NCBI GenBank assembly: GCA_947571135.1
Contig: CANOWY010000003.1
Span: forward strand, 11,333-75,332
Source of the DNA: an uncultured Mycoplasmatota bacterium
GTDB taxonomy: Bacteria > Bacillota_I > Bacilli_A > RF39 > UBA660
Reading direction: 5' to 3'
DNA: 64,000 nucleotides
How positions within the stretch are numbered: the stretch's first letter is position 1; each line of letters opens with the position of its first letter. Under the pieces are notes generated by a model. That model ran no database searches. It was not told the origin of the DNA and saw nothing but the letters and a program-made list of their open reading frames with translations. Position numbers and translations under genes: made by a program. This document shows, one piece after another, positions 5,288 to 39,022 of this stretch.

Positions 5288-6379
5288 TCACTTCCTACTA
5301 ATACTTAATATAATCCCTACGCTTGCCATACTAACAAGCAAAGAAGAACCTCCATATGATAAAAACGGTAAAGTAACACCAGTGACAGGAATAATACCCA
5401 CTACAACCATTAAATTTAATAGGGCCTGAATAATGATTCCAAATGAAAGCCCAAAAGCCAAGTATTTGCCAAACAAATCATTTTGTTTTAAAGAGATTTT
5501 TAAAGAGCGAAAAAAGATAAAAAAGAAAACACTTGTTACAATTAAGACTCCTAAAAAACCAAATTCTTCACTAATAATTGAAAAAATAAAATCAGTTTGT
5601 GGCTCTGGAAGATAAAAATGCTTCTGACGACTGTTTAAAAAACCTTGTCCAAGAAGACCTCCTGGACCTATTGCGTACAAACTTTGAATAATTTGAAATC
5701 CACTTCCTAAAGGATCCGTCCATGGATTTAAAAAGGAAACAATTCTTGCCATACGATATGGGGCTACAATAATAAGTCCAACAATTCCTATAAGTCCTAC
5801 CATTAAGAGTTTAATAAAGAAAGACATTTTAACTCCTGAAATAAAAATCATTACAACCAGGGTTAGTACAATCACCATCGCTGTACCAAAATCTGGTTCT
5901 AACATAATAAGTCCAAAAAAAACTAGAATTAAACTCATAATAGGCAATACACCCTGTTTTATATCTCGCATATTTTTTTTATTATTAGAAAGATACTTTG
6001 CTACATAAATAATAAGTCCTATCTTAGCAAACTCACTTGGCTGAATACCAAAGCCACCTATACCAAACCAACTACGACTACCATTGCGGATTGTACCAAT
6101 TCCTGGAATAAGGACAAGAAGCAACAGCAAAAAACAACCGAATAAAATTAAATTAGCCTTTTTGTAATAAAGATGATAATCCACTTTGGATAAAAAATAC
6201 ATAAGAAAAATACCCACAATGAAAAACATACCTTGTGCTTTAATAAATTTAAAAGGATCCTGAAACTTATACTCTGCCCAAATACTACTAGCAGAATAAA
6301 TCATAATAATACCAAACGTAGCAATTAAAAGTACTGCTATAAATAATTTATAATCTATTTTTTTCATATAATGCCTCAT
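5288..6379 (-). CDS. ftsW: Peptidoglycan glycosyltransferase FtsW/SpoVE (SEDS family)
   Basis: 363 aa polytopic membrane protein with SEDS motifs (GxxxNGSRSW, PEPQTDFIFS, LPFLSYGGSS). Sits between mraY and murG. Confidence 0.85.
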   Translation of the reverse strand: MRHYMKKIDYKLFIAVLLIATFGIIMIYSASSIWAEYKFQDPFKFIKAQGMFFIVGIFLMYFLSKVDYHLYYKKANLILFGCFLLLLLVLIPGIGTIRNGSRSWFGIGGFGIQPSEFAKIGLIIYVAKYLSNNKKNMRDIKQGVLPIMSLILVFFGLIMLEPDFGTAMVIVLTLVVMIFISGVKMSFFIKLLMVGLIGIVGLIIVAPYRMARIVSFLNPWTDPLGSGFQIIQSLYAIGPGGLLGQGFLNSRQKHFYLPEPQTDFIFSIISEEFGFLGVLIVTSVFFFIFFRSLKISLKQNDLFGKYLAFGLSFGIIIQALLNLMVVVGIIPVTGVTLPFLSYGGSSLLVSMASVGIILSISRK

Positions 6380-7043: not shown

Positions 7044-8036
7044 TTAAATCCAAACCCCATAAGTAATCGCTGCCATAGCAAGCAAGAAACCGATTACCCA
7101 AAATAATTTTACAATATCCGTTTCTGCCCAACCAACTTGTTCAAAGTGATGATGAAGAGGAGCCATTTTAAATATTTTTTTATGAAACTTTCGTATCGCT
7201 ATGATTTGGACAAAACTAGAAATTGTTTCAACAACAAATACACCCCCAACTAATACAAGAGAAAGTTCATGACGCGTTACAATCGCAACAGTTGCCAGAG
7301 CCCCACCTAAAGCGAGGCTTCCTAAATCTCCCATGAAGATTTTAGCAGGATGGGTATTATATAATAAAAATCCCAGTAAACTTCCTACTAAAAGAAAACA
7401 AAATATTGCCACCTCTTCATATCCTTGCATCCACCCTGTATTCCAAGCAATAATTCCAAAAGCCAAAAATGCGATTGCAGAAAGGCCTCCAGCAAGACCA
7501 TCTAGTCCATCTGTAATATTGACAGCATTAGAAGTACCTACTAAAACAAATAAAATAAAGATTCCAAATAACCAGCCCATATCAATACTAATTCCAATAG
7601 AAGTAATCCAAAGAACTGGCTCCCCTCCATTTTTCATAAATACATAAAAGAAGACAAGCGCAATCGCCATTTGTAGTAAGAATTTCGTAGTAATGCTAAT
7701 CCCAGCATTATTTTTAAACTTTATTTTTAAATAATCATCAATAAATCCCAAGAAAGCATAAGCAAGAAAAACAAAAATTAAAATAAATAAATTATGATTC
7801 ATTGTAATACTACCACGAATATAAAGCAAAAATAAGGAAACCAAGACAGGAACAATAAAGATAAAGCCTCCCATTGTTGGTGTCCCATTTTTCTTAAGAT
7901 GTCTTTCTCCAATAGTCAAACTAACATTTTGCCCTAACTTTTCCTTACGAGCAAACTTTACAAAAAAGAAACCAAATATCATGGAGATTACAAACCCTAG
8001 CATAATGGACATCGCTGCTTTTGCTAAAATTAACAT
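7044..8036 (-). CDS. mraY: Phospho-N-acetylmuramoyl-pentapeptide transferase MraY
   Basis: 330 aa with NAVNITDGLDGLAGG and MGDLGSLALGG motifs diagnostic of MraY. Confidence 0.9.
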   Translation of the reverse strand: MLILAKAAMSIMLGFVISMIFGFFFVKFARKEKLGQNVSLTIGERHLKKNGTPTMGGFIFIVPVLVSLFLLYIRGSITMNHNLFILIFVFLAYAFLGFIDDYLKIKFKNNAGISITTKFLLQMAIALVFFYVFMKNGGEPVLWITSIGISIDMGWLFGIFILFVLVGTSNAVNITDGLDGLAGGLSAIAFLAFGIIAWNTGWMQGYEEVAIFCFLLVGSLLGFLLYNTHPAKIFMGDLGSLALGGALATVAIVTRHELSLVLVGGVFVVETISSFVQIIAIRKFHKKIFKMAPLHHHFEQVGWAETDIVKLFWVIGFLLAMAAITYGVWI

Positions 8037-11108: not shown

Positions 11109-11777
11109 TTACTCATAATAATTTCCATAATAACTGCCATGTATATCATTTGTACGATTCACAATAATTCCTGCAATATCCGCTCCAACACTCATTAAAC
11201 TTTTCTTAGTAAACTCTAATTCATTAGTTTTGGTTTGATTAACAGAAGATACAATAACAGTTTTATCTACATATTTTGTCAATATAAGAGAGTCCGTAAG
11301 ACCATTTACTGGAGTACCATCTAAAATAATATAATCAAATTTATCTGCTAAAGTTCGCAAAAGAACTTTTGTCTTTGGCGAATTTAATAACTCACTTGGA
11401 TTTGGAGGAACCACACCTTTTGATAATAAATATAAATTTTCAATACGTGTTCTTCTAATATAACTGTTAAAACGCACTTCTACATTTTCAAGTAATAGAT
11501 TAGAAAGACCTTTATCATTTTCAATTTCAAATATTTTATGAAGTCTTCCTTTTCTCATATCACAGTCCATTAACAAGACTTTACTTCCATTTTGAGCAAA
11601 TGCAGTTGCTAAGTTAGTACTAATAAAACTCTTTCCTTCCCCTGGAACAGAAGAAGTCACCAATATAGAACGTACTTTTTTATCAACTCCAGAAAACTCT
11701 AGATTTGTTCTAATAATACGTATGGCCTCTGCAACACTAGATTTCGGATTCTTATCGACAATGATCTCATCTTTCAT
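11109..11777 (-). CDS. cpsD: BY-kinase (capsular tyrosine autokinase) CpsD/Wze
   Basis: 222 aa with Walker A SSVPGEGKSF, Walker A' ILLMDCDMRKG, Walker B IILDGTP and a C-terminal Tyr-rich tail GSYYGNYYE. Confidence 0.8.
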   Translation of the reverse strand: MKDEIIVDKNPKSSVAEAIRIIRTNLEFSGVDKKVRSILVTSSVPGEGKSFISTNLATAFAQNGSKVLLMDCDMRKGRLHKIFEIENDKGLSNLLLENVEVRFNSYIRRTRIENLYLLSKGVVPPNPSELLNSPKTKVLLRTLADKFDYIILDGTPVNGLTDSLILTKYVDKTVIVSSVNQTKTNELEFTKKSLMSVGADIAGIIVNRTNDIHGSYYGNYYE

Positions 11778-32476: not shown

Positions 32477-33427
32477 ATGTTAAAAAAAGGGATTATTAAA
32501 AGAATAACAATTTCTTCTCTTGCACTTCTTATTCTCCTTATTACTTATTTTTTTCCCACCAAAATGGAGCAAAAAATTCCACAAACACTTAGTTATAGTG
32601 ATATCAAAACAAGTGCTATATACATTTTAAATAACACATCTTACGTTAGTCGCATTCCTATGAAAATATCTGCAAACGAAACACTTGATAGAGCAAAAGA
32701 AATCCTTACTATTTTAACGATTAAAAGCAAAGAAAGCGAATATTTACCCACTGATTTTTATGGGGTAATTCCAGTTGGAACAGTCATTCGTGATATTTCT
32801 TTAGATAATGGAATTATAAAAGTAGACTTTTCTAAAGAATTTCTAAATACAACCAAAGATTTAGAACGCAAAGTAATCGAAGCAATAGTGTTTTCTCTAA
32901 CGGAGTTAAAAGAAGTAGAAAATGTCCTTATTTTTGTAGAAGGAGAACAATTATTAGAACTTCCCTTCAGTAAAGAAAAACTTCCCCCTATTCTAAATAA
33001 AGATTTTGGAATAAATAAAGTTTATGATATTGAAAGTATTAAAAATACCACTAAAACAACTATTTATTATGGAAGTAAAACAAATGATACTTTTTACTAT
33101 ATTCCTATCACTTATATCGACAATAACCCACAAGAAAAAGTAGAAATTATTATTGAAAAGTTAAAAACTTCTCCATTATACGAATCTAATTTAGTAAGTT
33201 ATTTGCATGCTAATGCAGAAATGACCAATTATGAAATATTAGAGCAAGAAATAAAATTAAGTTTTAACAATTATTTATTAGATGATGTAACGAACGGAAA
33301 CGTTTTAGAAGAAGTAAAATATACAATTTTCCTTTCTTTACGTGATACTTATAATATAGAAAAAGTAGAATTTAATATTAAAAGTGATATAGAAAATTTG
33401 AATTTTGTTATAAATCCGCTTGAATAA
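32477..33427 (+). CDS. GerM-like lipoprotein / GerMN-domain protein
   Basis: 316 aa with an N-terminal signal/anchor and two GerMN-like repeats (spore germination/sporulation associated). Confidence 0.45.
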   Translation: MLKKGIIKRITISSLALLILLITYFFPTKMEQKIPQTLSYSDIKTSAIYILNNTSYVSRIPMKISANETLDRAKEILTILTIKSKESEYLPTDFYGVIPVGTVIRDISLDNGIIKVDFSKEFLNTTKDLERKVIEAIVFSLTELKEVENVLIFVEGEQLLELPFSKEKLPPILNKDFGINKVYDIESIKNTTKTTIYYGSKTNDTFYYIPITYIDNNPQEKVEIIIEKLKTSPLYESNLVSYLHANAEMTNYEILEQEIKLSFNNYLLDDVTNGNVLEEVKYTIFLSLRDTYNIEKVEFNIKSDIENLNFVINPLE

Positions 33428-33448
33428 TACAAAATATTATTATATAAT
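33420..33448 (+). promoter_or_regulatory. Putative sigma-A promoter for tRNA-Arg (TTGAAT-N17-TATAAT)
   Basis: TTGAAT at 33420-33425 (overlaps the gerM-like stop), an exact 17-nt spacer and TATAAT at 33443-33448, about 22 nt before the tRNA 5' end. Confidence 0.5.
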
Positions 33449-33469
33449 CAATATGTCCATGAGTGAAAC

Positions 33470-33546
33470 GTCCCGGTAGCTCAGTTGGATAGAGCATACG
33501 CCTTCTAAGCGTACGGTCATGTGTTCGAATCACATCCGGGACACCA
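33470..33546 (+). tRNA. tRNA-Arg (anticodon TCT), CCA encoded
   Basis: Cloverleaf folded by hand: acceptor GTCCCGG/CCGGGAC, D-arm TAGCTCAGTTGGATAGAGCA, anticodon stem TACGC/GCGTA with loop cTTCTAa, T-arm ATGTG-TTCGAAT-CACAT, and 3' ACCA. Confidence 0.85.
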
Positions 33547-33563
33547 CTTTAAGTATTATAATT

Positions 33564-33592
33564 CCTTAGAAATAAGGGATTTTTTTATTTTT
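33564..33592 (+). terminator. Intrinsic terminator after the tRNA
   Basis: cctta-gaaa-taagg stem-loop followed by gatttttttattttt. Confidence 0.5.
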
Positions 33593-33623
33593 GCTTTATT
33601 GTACCTATAAAAAAGAGCACAAT

Positions 33624-34562
33624 TTATACTTGTTCTCCTGATTCTATTATTTCCTCTGTTACATATATTTTACTGACTTCTTTTTTTAATCTTTTTACCA
33701 AAGTAAATTTATAAGGAATTTCTTCTATTTCTTCACGAACATTGACTAAGAATTCTTCTCTTTCCTCTTTATCTAAATTATTAAGCAAAGTAGAAAGATA
33801 AATACTTCTTAAAAAAGCAATTTGTTTTGTTCTACATAATCTTTCAGATATTAAACAATTTACTTGTTGAATAGCAAGATTAGTATTATATTCGTTTATT
33901 GTTTTCCATAACATATTTTTATCAAATACTTCTTCATAAATGATTTCTGTACTATATAATTCATAAGGAAAATGAAGTATTCTATCTTTTATATAAATTT
34001 GTTCCAATAATGTATTTAAATACGTGATTTCATAAGGAATACGTGTCACTTTTTCTTTTAATATTTTTTCACGTGGATTTTGACATGTAGAAATATTTAG
34101 AAAACGGAGACAATTTTCTAATTCTAAATCTTGAGAGATTGTATCTAAAATATAGTCTTCTTCTGAAGCATAAAATTTATTAATAGTTGATTTTTCTTGT
34201 AATAGTACTTCCCCTTCCTCATCTTTTATTGTTGAAGTAATAGGATTTTCTCTAACCAACTTTTTTAATTTTTCAGAAATTCTTAATAAAGCAAGGGATT
34301 GGTTATTTAAAACAATATAATTTTCTAATACACTATCATTGGATAATCCATAACATGTTAAAAATTTAAAATAGATGTCTTGCAAATGCGAAGCATAATC
34401 TTTTTGTAATGTTTCTAAAAGTTTTTCTTCTTTTTGGGTTAAATATTCTAAACAAGTAAATAGTGCTTCTTTTTCTGTTTTATCTTCCTCTTTTTGAATC
34501 CTACGATATAAATTATAGATTTGATGTGCATTTTCTATTAAAAATTCTATGATATTATGCAA
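33624..34562 (-). CDS. Hypothetical acidic cytoplasmic protein (312 aa, TTG start), driven by a poly-G-containing promoter
   Basis: Long ORF with no TM and no family recognised. Start codon is TTG at 34560-34562, preceded by an aggggtg RBS. A 7/8-bp hairpin plus U-run follows the stop, in the 33596-33630 area. Confidence 0.55.
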   Translation of the reverse strand: MHNIIEFLIENAHQIYNLYRRIQKEEDKTEKEALFTCLEYLTQKEEKLLETLQKDYASHLQDIYFKFLTCYGLSNDSVLENYIVLNNQSLALLRISEKLKKLVRENPITSTIKDEEGEVLLQEKSTINKFYASEEDYILDTISQDLELENCLRFLNISTCQNPREKILKEKVTRIPYEITYLNTLLEQIYIKDRILHFPYELYSTEIIYEEVFDKNMLWKTINEYNTNLAIQQVNCLISERLCRTKQIAFLRSIYLSTLLNNLDKEEREEFLVNVREEIEEIPYKFTLVKRLKKEVSKIYVTEEIIESGEQV

Positions 34563-34597
34563 ACTAAAACACCCCTGTCTTTTCTAATTTTCAAAAT

Positions 34598-34625
34598 ATT
34601 ATAACCCCCCCCCGATCGTTGTCAA
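34598..34625 (-). promoter_or_regulatory. Consensus sigma-A promoter with a G9 homopolymer in the spacer (TTGACA-acgatcGGGGGGGGGt-TATAAT); candidate phase-variable promoter
   Basis: Reverse complement of 34598-34625 reads TTGACAacgatcgggggggggtTATAAT. The spacer is 16 nt and 9 of them are G. It sits about 35 nt upstream of the TTG start of the 312-aa gene. Confidence 0.6.
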
Positions 34626-34691
34626 TAAAATTAAAAATCATATTAATAATATAAAAACTATTTTATAATTTATTCTTCCATTTCAACTAAA

Positions 34692-34730
34692 GAAAGTAGC
34701 AAATTATTCTTTAATAGTTTTGCTACTTTC
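34692..34730 (-). terminator. 12-bp perfect stem hairpin enclosing the stop codon of the 346-aa gene (terminator-like, weak U-tract)
   Basis: gaaagtagcaaa (34692-34703) pairs with tttgctactttc (34719-34730) around a 15-nt loop that contains the TAA stop. It is followed by UUUAGUU on the minus strand. Confidence 0.4.
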
Positions 34731-35744
34731 ATTTTTAAATTTCCACGGATTATCTTTTTCTCCTGTCCCTGATACTTTTAACCCAGATTTAAGAACAACA
34801 ATAGGTCGAATATAAGCGCTACTTGTAACTTCGGCATCAGATTCCATGAGTCTAATCCCTGAATATTCACTCCCATAACTATTTGAAACTTGTAGATACA
34901 AAGACACATTACGATATGTAGTGGCAGAAGTATGTTCATTTGTATAGGTACGAGTCGATAAAAAATAATTCCCTGTTTCGTTAGTAAAAACCTTATTACT
35001 GGCAAGCGTTCCTAAAGCATTTTGAAGCAAGGAAACATCTGTTTTATACGCTCTATCTCCACATCCTTGTGGCTCCAATGCCCCATCTAACCAATTTTTA
35101 TCATAAGTTCTATGATTCCAACAATTATTATTAATACCAGATAGACTATTATATATAATTAGAGACTGATTGCTATACCCTACATGTCTAGAACCATCTG
35201 TATATAAATCATTTTCATATTGTTTTGCAATATCCTGAATTGTTTGTACATAATATTTGTATCCATGTACACCAGTAAAATATATAGCAGTACTTGATAC
35301 ATATTCCGATACCATTTCGATTTTTCCATCATTTGTTTTTCTTATAACTCTCCACAAATTTAATTCGCTAGGATGAATAGTTTGATTTGTACTATAGCCT
35401 GTATAACTGTTTGGTACTGTATATGTTGTACTTTCAGGAGTCATTTCCACATAATCTCCTACTTCAACTACAGTTGTAAGTTCTACATCGTTATAATGAG
35501 GTCTAAAAACAGGGATTCTTCCCTTTAAGACATTAAATTCCTTTTTCTCTTCATAAAAAGCAAATGTTTTATAAAGTGTGATTCCACCTACTACCAGAAG
35601 TATTCCTATTATGCTTCCTACTAAGACTTTCTTTTGTTTTTGATTTTTATTAAACTTCTTAAATTCACCTGGGTTACTTTCTAATATACCCCCCCCCAGG
35701 CGTGTTCCTGAAGTTGGGAGGTTTCTTTTCTTCATTTTTTTCAT
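34704..35744 (-). CDS. Membrane-anchored surface protein of unknown function (346 aa) with a G9 tract in codons 17-19
   Basis: N-terminus MKKMKKRNLPTSGTRLGGGILESNPGEFKK (cytoplasmic), TM VLVGSIIGILLVVGGITL, then about 290 aa extracellular Tyr/Ser/Thr/Asn-rich domain with 4 Cys. Strong RBS ggaggag. C9 at 35689-35697 on the plus strand. Confidence 0.6.
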   Translation of the reverse strand: MKKMKKRNLPTSGTRLGGGILESNPGEFKKFNKNQKQKKVLVGSIIGILLVVGGITLYKTFAFYEEKKEFNVLKGRIPVFRPHYNDVELTTVVEVGDYVEMTPESTTYTVPNSYTGYSTNQTIHPSELNLWRVIRKTNDGKIEMVSEYVSSTAIYFTGVHGYKYYVQTIQDIAKQYENDLYTDGSRHVGYSNQSLIIYNSLSGINNNCWNHRTYDKNWLDGALEPQGCGDRAYKTDVSLLQNALGTLASNKVFTNETGNYFLSTRTYTNEHTSATTYRNVSLYLQVSNSYGSEYSGIRLMESDAEVTSSAYIRPIVVLKSGLKVSGTGEKDNPWKFKNESSKTIKE

Positions 35745-35944
35745 TTATATCTCCTCCATTTATTATATACTTATCATATCATATTTTTTTACTATTGTGA
35801 CAAATAAATAAATTTCCACGAAAATCCAAAAATGTAGTTTTCTTATGATATATTATAAAAATATTCTGTATTTCATAAAAAAAATGAACAAAATAAATTT
35901 AGATTATCAAATTTTTTACGTCTTTAAAATAATTTTATAACCGC

Positions 35945-35973
35945 ATAAAAAAATACTAGCCTAAACCTAGTAT
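35945..35973 (-). terminator. Intrinsic terminator after rpmF
   Basis: atactag-cctaaac-ctagtat (a 7-bp perfect stem) followed on the minus strand by UUUUUUU (A-run 35946-35952 on plus). Confidence 0.55.
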
Positions 35974-35998
35974 CTTTTAATCTGATAATATCTTTTTA

Positions 35999-36208
35999 TT
36001 ATTTCTCTTCAGATATTTTAATTACTTCTTTGTCTTTGTAATTCCCACATTTTGTACAAGCACGATGAGGTCTAATAGCAGCACCACATTTAGAACATGT
36101 ATTAATGGCTCCTACTTCTTTCTTTAAATGTGTACGACGCATTCTTTTTTTCGTTTTACTCGTTCTTCTAAACGGAACTGCAAATCTTTGAATGTCTAAT
36201 TGTAACAT
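35999..36208 (-). CDS. rpmF: 50S ribosomal protein L32
   Basis: ...[55 protein letters not shown] matches L32 ([10 protein letters not shown]4 ribbon). The likely start is ATG at 36206-36208 ([11 protein letters not shown]) with a ggaaggaa RBS. The track ORF is extended 8 codons upstream. Confidence 0.75.
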
Positions 36209-36212
36209 AATC

Positions 36213-36716
36213 TCATTCCTTCCCATGATCAAGTAACTCTGCCAATTTTGCTAGTCTCGGATCAATTTCATTTTTCTTTTCTTCTGTAAGTTCCCATCCA
36301 CTACCTGCGGTCTTTAAAATATTAGTACTTGCTTTGGTAGCACTAATGGGAATTTCCAATACAATATTCTCCCATAAAATCTCGCTAATATCAAGAGTAT
36401 TTTTACTTTTTTCATAAAAATCACCACAAGTTTCTTCAAGATTTTCGACTTTTTCTTCTATAAGACAAGAAAATGGATACTCTATTGGATCTAATGTAAT
36501 GGCATCTTGTAAAATAAATTTCCCGTTGGTTTCTAGATTTAGAGTCAAATTATTTTCATAGTCATAATTTATGTTTCCACTAACATGTAACTCTTTTATA
36601 TCCAAAATAGAAGCATTTTTATAGAGTTCTTTTTCTAAGAAAACTTCTTCGTCTATTAAAAGTCCAGTATTAGGTATTTTATTTAATTCTATAATCATCT
36701 TTTCACCTAAAAACAT
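36213..36716 (-). CDS. yceD: YceD/DUF177 family protein (23S rRNA accumulation protein YceD homologue)
   Basis: 167 aa acidic protein with two CxxC-type pairs, immediately upstream of rpmF (conserved yceD-rpmF synteny, ylbN in B. subtilis). Confidence 0.55.
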
Positions 36717-37924: not shown

Positions 37925-38578
37925 TTATTTTTTTAACAATTCTCTTTGGAATTTAGTAAAATTAAATTCTTCATAATTAGATAATACTTGGGTTATAAAA
38001 TTTATTAAATCGTTATACATATCGATTTGTTCTAGTAAAGGTACTTCTTGATTAACAATAGACATTTCAATTCTTTTAAAATAAGCATCATAATTTTCTT
38101 GCTCTTTTATATAAGTATCCATTGTAATTTCTATCAATGATTCTAATATACTAAAAACGTCCTTTATTAAATTTCCCTTTTTATAGTAATCTATCAATAT
38201 GCTAACTAAGGCTTCCACTAAAATAAGATAAGAATCTAACATATTTTCTTTTTGTTTATAGGCAAGTATTTTTCTATTAAATCCATTTGGTAATTTTTTA
38301 TAAGGCATTCTCAATATCATTTCTGAAATTGGTCGGCGTAATTGCTCTTTTTCCATTGCATTTTCTATTTTTTCATTTTGTTGGTACATATCCTCTAAGA
38401 ACACGTCCATTTCTAAGATTTTTTTATTTCTTATCGTGGTTGTTTTCTCTGTTCTAGTTGCAAAAAATAAGTATCTTATTTTCTTTAAAATACTTTTGTA
38501 TATTTTTCTAAAACTTAAATTTGCATTTGCTTGTATTAATTCTTCTTTATATTTTAAAAATAGTGCTTCATAATCCAT
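37925..38578 (-). CDS. Hypothetical protein (217 aa)
   Basis: Long ORF with AT-rich-genome codon usage. No family recognised. Confidence 0.45.
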   Translation of the reverse strand: MDYEALFLKYKEELIQANANLSFRKIYKSILKKIRYLFFATRTEKTTTIRNKKILEMDVFLEDMYQQNEKIENAMEKEQLRRPISEMILRMPYKKLPNGFNRKILAYKQKENMLDSYLILVEALVSILIDYYKKGNLIKDVFSILESLIEITMDTYIKEQENYDAYFKRIEMSIVNQEVPLLEQIDMYNDLINFITQVLSNYEEFNFTKFQRELLKK

Positions 38579-38620: not shown

Positions 38621-39022
38621 TTATCTTTGTCTAGAACTTTTTAATTTAGAGTCATTTATCCTTTCTTCCATTTCCCGTAATTCATTTACAGTATAATTTT
38701 TTTCTTCTTCGTTCAAAACATTTGCTAACATTTTAAAATTGAAACTATATTTTTTAGGGATTACATACACAAATCCTTTTTGAATGATTATTTTAGCATT
38801 TTCTCCCTTCAGATTTCTATATACTCTATTTTCTTTTTTCTGGTGTTGTTTCGTTTCTCTTTTAGGAATTAAAATTTCATATCTCTCTGTTTGTTTATTT
38901 TGGATAACAACTAAATCTTGATTCGAATAAGTTTCCGCTTCTTGATTTAAATACTTTTTTATTCGTTCTAGATTTTCTCTACTTTCTTCTAACACTTCTT
39001 TCATAAATTCTTCCCCTAACAT
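38621..39022 (-). CDS. Hypothetical basic protein (133 aa)
   Basis: ORF with a Lys/Glu-rich composition. No family recognised. Confidence 0.4.
   Translation of the reverse strand: MLGEEFMKEVLEESRENLERIKKYLNQEAETYSNQDLVVIQNKQTERYEILIPKRETKQHQKKENRVYRNLKGENAKIIIQKGFVYVIPKKYSFNFKMLANVLNEEEKNYTVNELREMEERINDSKLKSSRQR

Follow-up and report, generated by a model that had tools for sequence, protein, structure and literature searches.

Two adjacent poly-G tracts beside a tRNA-Arg gene as probable separate contingency loci for a lectin-like surface protein and an unrelated cytoplasmic protein in an uncultured Mycoplasmatota bacterium

Introduction

Next to a tRNA-Arg(TCT) gene on contig CANOWY010000003.1 of an uncultured Mycoplasmatota bacterium (assembly GCA_947571135.1), two minus-strand genes, called gene 1 and gene 2 here, are each associated with a run of nine G residues (G9). 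From our analysis of the 64-kb stretch of this contig in which they lie (positions 11,333 to 75,332, 29% GC; referred to as the window), we conclude that these are probably two adjacent, separate homopolymeric-G contingency loci, of which one controls a lectin-like surface protein and the other an unrelated cytoplasmic protein. A preliminary description of the same DNA had reported the tRNA gene and the two minus-strand genes, whose coordinates and open reading frames (ORFs) we could confirm, and had proposed that both genes are under phase-variable control. This dual control is very probable, with the two switches acting independently, as tract lengths differ between near-identical assemblies and tract positions are conserved in orthologues and paralogues.

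Random switching by short repeats is textbook knowledge for Neisseria, Haemophilus, Campylobacter, and Mycoplasma; for gut commensals, attention has mostly been directed at invertible promoters. Literature searches, some of them aimed at phase variation in gut or Erysipelotrichia lineages and in part screened by title and abstract, brought up no account of poly-G switching for this lineage or for the family of gene 1.

Results

Rarity and position of the two G9 tracts

The window contains exactly two G/C runs of six or more nucleotides (nt), both of them G9 and both located at this locus. In dinucleotide-preserving shuffles the mean number of G9 runs was 0.02, and two such runs were reached in 1 of 100 shuffles. 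A composition model gave an expectation of 0.01 runs of at least nine and 1.8 runs of at least six, and runs of 6, 7, or 8 were not observed at all. The presence of both tracts is far from chance. GC skew was strongly negative throughout the window (positions 1-64000; -0.07 to -0.31 in 4-kb bins) without a change of sign. The minus strand, which is the coding strand of both genes, is thus the G-rich one, and it is on this strand that both tracts read as G.

The first tract is part of the coding region of gene 1, where it encodes L-G-G-G (...TRL-GGG-IL...) in the basic cytoplasmic tail of the protein, ahead of the hydrophobic helix. When the tract length was changed in silico, G9 resulted in the ORF of 346 amino acids (aa), and G7, G8, G10, and G11 each resulted in a stop after 20-23 codons. 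The second tract had been described as being carried by gene 2 itself, but it is actually located outside the gene, in the spacer of its promoter (TTGACA-acgatcG9t-TATAAT). In a consensus scan of positions 33300-36300, this was the sole promoter with a 12/12 match. Its spacer measures 16 nt with G9 and 17 nt, the optimal or canonical length, with G10. The state of the window strain is gene 1 ON, in combination with a 16-nt spacer in front of gene 2.

Tract lengths in near-identical genomes

Tract lengths were compared among contigs that are 98.7-100% identical to the window and that derive from independent metagenomes, recovered via exact-protein look-ups. The informative contigs are consensus sequences at low coverage (1.7-5.4x). 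One of these, L001, shares 99.84% identity with the window across 2460 nt (two mismatches and two gaps). In this closest comparison the two tracts account for all indels, and L001 has a coding tract of G8 and a promoter tract of G10. For the coding tract as a whole, we counted one sequence with G7 (L002), one with G8 (L001), and four with G9 (the window, L004, L005, and L100). For the promoter tract the census gave four sequences with G9 and nine with G10, the latter being contigs from different runs. Both tracts were assembled in six sequences, and the (coding, promoter) lengths in these were (9,9) four times, (8,10) once, and (7,10) once.

The different lengths of the coding tract also leave a mark in protein databases: entry P0001 is 100% identical to gene 1 yet only 246 aa long, and its gene call derives from the G8 and G7 contigs. 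In six Logan contigs from different runs (L003, L006, L009, L010, L011, and L013) the contig starts ~11 nt downstream of the coding tract, a shared start that fits heterogeneity or assembly difficulty at this position and that we regard as suggestive only. Exact-pattern scans of JGI metagenome contigs for further tract alleles gave no matches.

The gene 1 protein and its lectin-like ectodomain

In the gene 1 protein, a basic tail on the cytoplasmic side is followed by a single signal-anchor helix and then by an ectodomain (~250 aa) with similarity to DUF6273 domains and C-type lectins. Its sole hydrophobic segment was found at residues ~40-58, preceded by the basic tail, in agreement with the short cytoplasmic N-terminal tail and single transmembrane (TM) helix of the preliminary description; the four cysteines mentioned there are in fact two, the first of which does not occur before residue 208. 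No lipobox or lipoprotein signal was found in gene 1, which has a signal-anchor helix without cleavage motif. The pilin methylation motif PF07963 is absent from the gene 1 protein, and the proteins of its family have no C-terminal tandem repeats.

The AlphaFold2 (AF2) model of gene 1 has a predicted local distance difference test score (pLDDT) of 83.5 overall and of ~98 in the domain. In fold, this model is similar to a solved DUF6273 domain, at a sequence identity of 17%, and its top match in a viral structure library is a DUF6273 protein. A Foldseek search of the model against the PDB gave no match, nor did a profile search against PDB sequences. In a Pfam scan of the gene 1 protein there was no match to PF19789 at E values up to 1, and among 67 members of the gene 1 family PF19789 was matched by a single one (E 6.8e-5). 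Judged from the model, gene 1 is DUF6273-like or C-type-lectin-like by fold and not a member of the Pfam family. The earlier statement that the genes have no recognisable family thus holds at the level of sequence, but for gene 1 it does not hold at the level of fold. From the modelled structure we infer that the ectodomain may be an exposed binding module for a host, phage, or bacterial ligand.

Searches with tblastn gave no match of either protein in 50,697 phage records, and no relatives were present on IMG/VR viral contigs. On account of these negative searches, a phage origin was rejected.

Poly-G tracts throughout the gene 1 family

A first search recovered 146 relatives of gene 1, and a profile of the family domain matched at least 745 clusters in a set of 5.8 billion proteins. 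A PF19789 annotation was present on none of the 120 matches listed in this domain-profile search, which provides no bridge to DUF6273, and the named family members among the matches listed were hypothetical proteins of Bacilli metagenome-assembled genomes (MAGs). With the motif PSELNLWR[VI] and one genome per species, we collected 76 loci of the family. All of these are from gut MAGs of ~23-32% GC that are labelled Bacilli, Tenericutes, or Erysipelotrichaceae, and there are up to 13 loci per genome; the window contains one copy. The conserved ~250-aa ectodomain was found on varied N-termini, namely a tail plus anchor, a plain signal anchor, a type IV pilin N-terminus (PF07963; 5 of 67 family members), or extra FN3-type domains.

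In the 679 kb around the 76 loci we detected 30 G/C runs of at least seven, and every one of the 30 reads as G in the sense direction of the family gene. Most of them (22 of 30) either shortly precede a family ORF or fall within its 5' end, and they occur there in two recurring layouts. The first layout is a coding tail (...NLPTS.TRL-GGG..., G8-G11), and the second is a promoter spacer (TTGAC[AC]-N6-9-G7-12-TATAAT) that lies 37-64 nt ahead of the start codon. At L046 there are four tandem paralogues, each with a promoter tract of its own. Among the paralogues with a coding tract, 8 of 10 are out of frame in the assembled consensus. In the closest orthologue from the representative-genome scan (L017, 46% identity), the tract at 6030-6045 is interrupted yet in frame (GGGGAGGGGG, encoding LGRG). 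This is a natural 'locked' version of the tract, and the next tandem copy in the same contig, at 7254, carries G10 and is out of frame. Taken over all copies with an available 5' region, 21 of 67, or about a third, bear a tract.

Genes with other C-terminal domains were also found behind promoters of the poly-G type. At L035 (6799-8198), such a promoter precedes the gene for a 453-aa protein of which the leader and the first ~55 residues match a neighbouring family member and in which the lectin-like domain is absent, and at L047 (6936-9361) it drives a 792-aa protein with another C-terminal domain. In these genomes, the range of surface genes under the poly-G switch seems to be wider.

Eight of the loci with gene 1-family members (L017, L020, L023, L024, L029, L031, L037, and L040) are from MAGs titled 'uncultured Muribaculaceae'. 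These labels look wrong, as the contigs have 27-30% GC and Bacilli-type genes.

Gene 2 homologues and the history of gene 2 alleles

Gene 2 encodes a cytoplasmic protein without hydrophobic segment, signal peptide, or TM helix, which is predicted to be mostly helical. It had been characterized as a strongly acidic cytoplasmic protein; the cytoplasmic location stands, but the acidity is moderate, with an isoelectric point of 4.97 and 55 acidic versus 40 basic residues. The family is small (18 representatives among 1.84 billion proteins) and restricted to few lineages. Comparison of gene 2 with Pfam, PADLOC, PHROG, and NCBIfam gave no credible match, only noise, and the family profile found nothing below E 0.38 among PDB sequences.

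The promoter layout of gene 2 is kept in the orthologues L016 and L094 (72% and 51% identity, with G9 and G10, respectively). In L094 the homologue is again located before tRNA-Arg, with the promoter TTGACA-aacaccG10t-TATAAT and a different upstream gene. In L093 (35% identity) it directly follows yceD-rpmF and has a TTGACA-17-TAGTAT promoter, without gene 1 and without poly-G. Other homologues were found after comEA-comEC (L097) and among surface-protein genes (L095). At greater distance, the promoters of gene 2 homologues are of the ordinary kind, tract-free and with 17 nt between the boxes. Since the tract is present only in the promoters of the closer homologues, the poly-G promoter is a feature of the subclade of the window. 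Going by the gene order in one distant relative, L093, it looks as if the lineage of the window acquired gene 1 by insertion into the interval that separates rpmF from gene 2.

When the window was compared with L009, gene 1 and gerM had a synonymous divergence (dS) of 0.005, and the gene 1 proteins were 99.4% identical. For gene 2 of the same pair of strains, dS was 0.31 and the nonsynonymous divergence (dN) 0.086 (dN/dS 0.27), the proteins being 84% identical; the gap in divergence between gene 2 and gene 1 is therefore ~60-fold. Sliding identity between the two sequences revealed a mosaic of blocks whose breakpoints lie within gene 2 and shortly upstream of it. The dN/dS ratio and the mosaic pattern thus point to a functional gene of which alleles are exchanged, or are maintained in otherwise identical backgrounds.

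A more specific reading of these data would be that gene 2 encodes a conflict-type protein not described before, such as one for phage defence or immunity, and that balancing selection maintains its divergent alleles in otherwise identical genomes. The poly-G promoter would then set its level opposite to the state of gene 1 (ON with the 16-nt and OFF with the 17-nt spacer), such that the locus would toggle between receptor display and high-level internal defence. We consider this an unlikely extension of the data.

One cassette or two neighbours

The preliminary description had interpreted genes 1 and 2 as a single functional and possibly mobile system, in which a surface receptor or adhesin and a cytoplasmic partner (as in phage exclusion or abortive infection) are inserted at tRNA-Arg. 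It is true that all contigs from the species group of the window have the two genes side by side in one orientation, that a G tract is present at both, that the gene content beside tRNA-Arg differs between strains, and that the alleles of gene 2 are unusually divergent. The states of the two tracts also go together in the six sequences in which both were assembled, but this number is too small for the coupling to be interpreted (our own Fisher estimate is ~0.07) and the samples may not be independent. Outside the species group the two genes were never found together. The 76 gene 1-family loci, which were taken from representative genomes, all lack a gene 2 homologue, and gene 2 homologues are present without gene 1 directly after rpmF, after comEC, and beside other genes. 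The two families therefore co-occur only at this locus in the species group of the window, and neither the proposed cassette nor the co-location that it implies was borne out. In addition, the genes have separate promoters with a terminator-like hairpin between them, their divergence in the same pair of strains differs as described above, and there is no PADLOC or PHROG match. A single two-gene system at the tRNA is therefore improbable.

Signs of integration at the tRNA gene were not found either. No integrase-type Pfam family was present among the called genes of near-identical contigs, ~5 kb to either side; these genes include rpmF, yceD, GerM, a GerE-type regulator, SpoIIIAH, EF-P, L33, and MraZ. 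A second copy of the tRNA 3' end was not found in the window with up to 3 mismatches allowed, which, together with the gene list, agrees with the earlier remark that neither an integrase nor an attachment-site repeat could be seen. No matching repeats were found flanking the insertion in L009 that is described below, and there was no phage or plasmid signal. A tRNA-integrated island was rejected on the grounds that an integrase-type family among these called genes, an attachment repeat in the window, and repeats at the edges of the L009 insertion are all missing.

The preliminary description had further raised, as a point to check, whether the cassette is variably present at this tRNA. Genes 1 and 2 are present in all contigs of the species group, whereas the DNA between gene 2 and tRNA-Arg does vary. 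In L009 (2072-6825) and L011 (2070-6836) a 4.7-kb block occupies the place of window positions 33547-33623, and its genes are absent from the window. It encodes an MBL-fold (Apyc1-like) protein, coaD, coaE, a LysR regulator, and several small ORFs. This block holds a third G tract, which is G7 in L009 (5882-5888) and G6 in L011 (5880-5885). The sequence TATGAT directly follows it and small ORFs lie downstream; this may be another tract-controlled promoter. In L016, the same gap between gene 2 and tRNA-Arg contains a PBECR2/3 nuclease gene and a small ORF.

Layout of the locus

The coordinates of all features are collected in Table 1. The genes rpmF and yceD are located upstream of gene 1 on the same strand, and genes 1 and 2 each have their own ribosome-binding site. 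The preliminary description had also assigned a promoter and a terminator to each gene. Of the hairpins involved, the 12-bp one is real and that of rpmF is plausible, but the hairpin 3' of gene 2 is weak on the strand of this gene (z -1.1); it reads better as the terminator of tRNA-Arg itself, on the plus strand.

Table 1. Features of the tRNA-Arg locus, in window coordinates.
Feature	Position	Strand	Remarks
tRNA-Arg(TCT)	33470-33546	+	Convergent with gene 2; one edge of the strain-variable stretch
Gene 2	33624-34562	-	ORF, 312 aa, TTG start
Gene 2 promoter	34598-34625	-	-35 TTGACA 34625-34620, 16-nt spacer, -10 TATAAT 34603-34598
Promoter G9 tract	34605-34613	-	Supplies 9 of the 16 nt in the spacer of the gene 2 promoter
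Perfect 12-bp hairpin spanning the gene 1 stop codon, terminator-like	34692-34730	-	-15.8 kcal/mol, z -4.4; 0 of 200 shuffles fold equally well
Gene 1	34704-35744	-	ORF, 346 aa, ATG start
Coding G9 tract	35689-35697	-	From codon 16 (third base) through codon 19 (second base) of gene 1
Gene 1 ribosome-binding site GGAGGAG	35751-35757	-	6 nt before the ATG, from direct sequence reading
Candidate gene 1 promoter	35773-35801	-	GTCACA-17-TATGAT, TG ahead of -10; 9/12 in the consensus scan, inferred
rpmF hairpin and U-run, terminator-like	35941-35978	-	-13.4 kcal/mol, z -2.45; plausible

Elsewhere in the window, two more minus-strand ORFs (37925-38578 and 38621-39022; 217 and 133 aa) are located between a tmcAL-like gene and fpg. 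They have no Pfam match and are conserved in L004.

Discussion

Proposed mechanism and alternative explanations

We propose that replication slippage in the G9 run of codons 16-19 would shift the reading frame of gene 1, and that this tract would thereby function as a translational ON/OFF switch, with G9 giving the full protein and G7, G8, G10, and G11 a peptide of 20-23 residues. The full-length product would be held in the membrane by its N-terminal signal anchor, with the lectin-like, DUF6273-type binding module outside. Slippage in the promoter tract would alter the spacer of gene 2 (16 nt with G9 and 17 nt with G10) and in this way set its level of transcription. In the wider family, about one copy in three carries a tract, placed either within the coding tail or within the promoter spacer, and these switches would allow a population to display changing subsets of proteins. 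The tract differences would arise by reversible slippage within populations, and by analogy with other promoters we expect that the length of the spacer changes the expression of gene 2.

Several points weigh against this proposal. Differences in length at homopolymers in low-coverage consensus sequences could partly be due to sequencing or assembly error, and the census rests on 13 sequences, some of which are perhaps from one study. The effect of a 16-nt versus a 17-nt spacer is drawn from general knowledge of sigma-70 promoters and not from the host organism. Two thirds of the family copies lack a G run of at least seven, which makes the switch common without being family-defining. Finally, the AF2 model of gene 2 is poor (pLDDT 52.5) and too weak for a fold search.

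We also considered control at the RNA level, in which the polymerase slips on the G run such that out-of-frame alleles of gene 1 still yield some protein and the tract acts as a leaky attenuator. In other bacteria, RNA polymerase is known to slip on long homopolymers, and the out-of-frame consensus of most paralogues would be tolerable if such slippage rescues them. Yet this would leave unexplained the differences in tract length at the DNA level, the tracts in promoter spacers, which are not transcribed as coding sequence, and the interrupted in-frame tract of L017. RNA slippage is, moreover, compatible with DNA slippage rather than an alternative to it, and as the sole explanation it is quite improbable. 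Still a little less probable is that the tracts are fixed and neither gene is phase-variable at the DNA level, all length differences being homopolymer artefacts of sequencing or assembly: coverage of the informative contigs is low, homopolymers are error-prone, and reads from two-colour Illumina chemistry can end in spurious poly-G (among our contigs, L068 and L015 have poly-G at their ends). The tracts discussed here, however, do not lie at sequence ends but between unique flanks, and many species have them at homologous positions. In addition, independent assemblies arrive at the same alternative lengths (G10 in nine contigs from different runs), the placement of 30 out of 30 runs on the sense strand and next to gene 5' ends is unlike that of an artefact, and from established knowledge of repeat-tract phase variation a G9 in a 29% GC genome is a known slippage substrate.

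Comparison with known systems

The two separate contingency loci that we favor are of a known type, that of the repeat-tract contingency locus, and it is the lineage and the protein families that differ from the described cases. In Mycoplasma hyorhinis, the variable surface lipoproteins (Vlp) are encoded by a multigene family of which each member has a homopolymer in its promoter spacer. By analogy, the switch logic of our locus most closely resembles that of this vlp family. Gene 2 and many gene 1 paralogues likewise have a homopolymer between -35 and -10 in which slippage would alter the spacer, tandem paralogues can each have their own tract (the four in a row at L046), and both systems belong to host-associated, low-GC lineages of the Bacilli/Mollicutes type. 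However, the homopolymer is poly-G here and poly-A in Vlp, and instead of lipoproteins with a lipobox we find signal-anchored or pilin-fused globular domains that are lectin-like and lack C-terminal tandem repeats. Gene 1 itself differs from the vlp genes in having its tract in the coding region and in being a single copy in the window, and the present lineage carries sporulation-type genes (SpoIIIAH and GerM).

A second comparison is with the poly-G/poly-C contingency loci of Neisseria, Haemophilus, and Campylobacter, such as porA and opc with a tract in the promoter spacer and pilC with a tract in the leader-coding sequence. ON/OFF control by a G run near the start of the coding sequence and graded levels set by a G/C run in the spacer are both classical in these organisms, where the loci are also independent so that their states combine freely, and where tract lengths differ between otherwise identical strains. 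The difference is in the hosts and in the proteins: Gram-negative mucosal pathogens on their side versus a lineage of Gram-positive-type gut commensals here, with different protein families.

For the ectodomain of gene 1, the relevant comparison is with DUF6273 proteins. The N-terminal domain (residues 31-321) of the Thomasclavelia ramosa IgA protease was described as an oversized C-type-lectin-like domain, closest to Lcl, which is dispensable for catalysis and of unknown function (PMC12237041), and another group labelled this domain DUF6273 (PMC12402451). In phage receptor-binding proteins ('tentaclin'), DUF6273 domains with a hypervariable surface are targets of mutagenesis by diversity-generating retroelements (DGRs) (PMC10743442). 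Since DUF6273 is hypervariable in phages, the scaffold has apparently been placed under variation mechanisms repeatedly. Gene 1 shares with these proteins an extracellular, oversized lectin-like module, but it misses PF19789 and has the low identity and the negative Foldseek-PDB and profile results given above. Unlike the phage proteins, the gene 1 family varies by ON/OFF switching and by the number of paralogues rather than by DGR mutagenesis, and, in contrast to the T. ramosa protease, gene 1 has no protease domain.

Significance

A large and unannotated family of lectin-like surface proteins of uncultured gut Bacilli thus appears to be run by two kinds of poly-G switch. One practical caution follows for those who work with MAGs: gene calls of the gene 1 family are often short merely because the tract was assembled at an OFF length. 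The importance of the locus would rise if switching is confirmed at the level of reads, or if the alleles of gene 2 prove to be conflict genes. The fold of the gene 1 ectodomain is that of the N-terminal domain of the T. ramosa IgA protease, and it also matches the DGR-diversified receptor-binding domains of phages. If our interpretation is true, the family would offer a concrete handle on how these poorly known gut bacteria change the surface that they present to host IgA, mucus, or phages.

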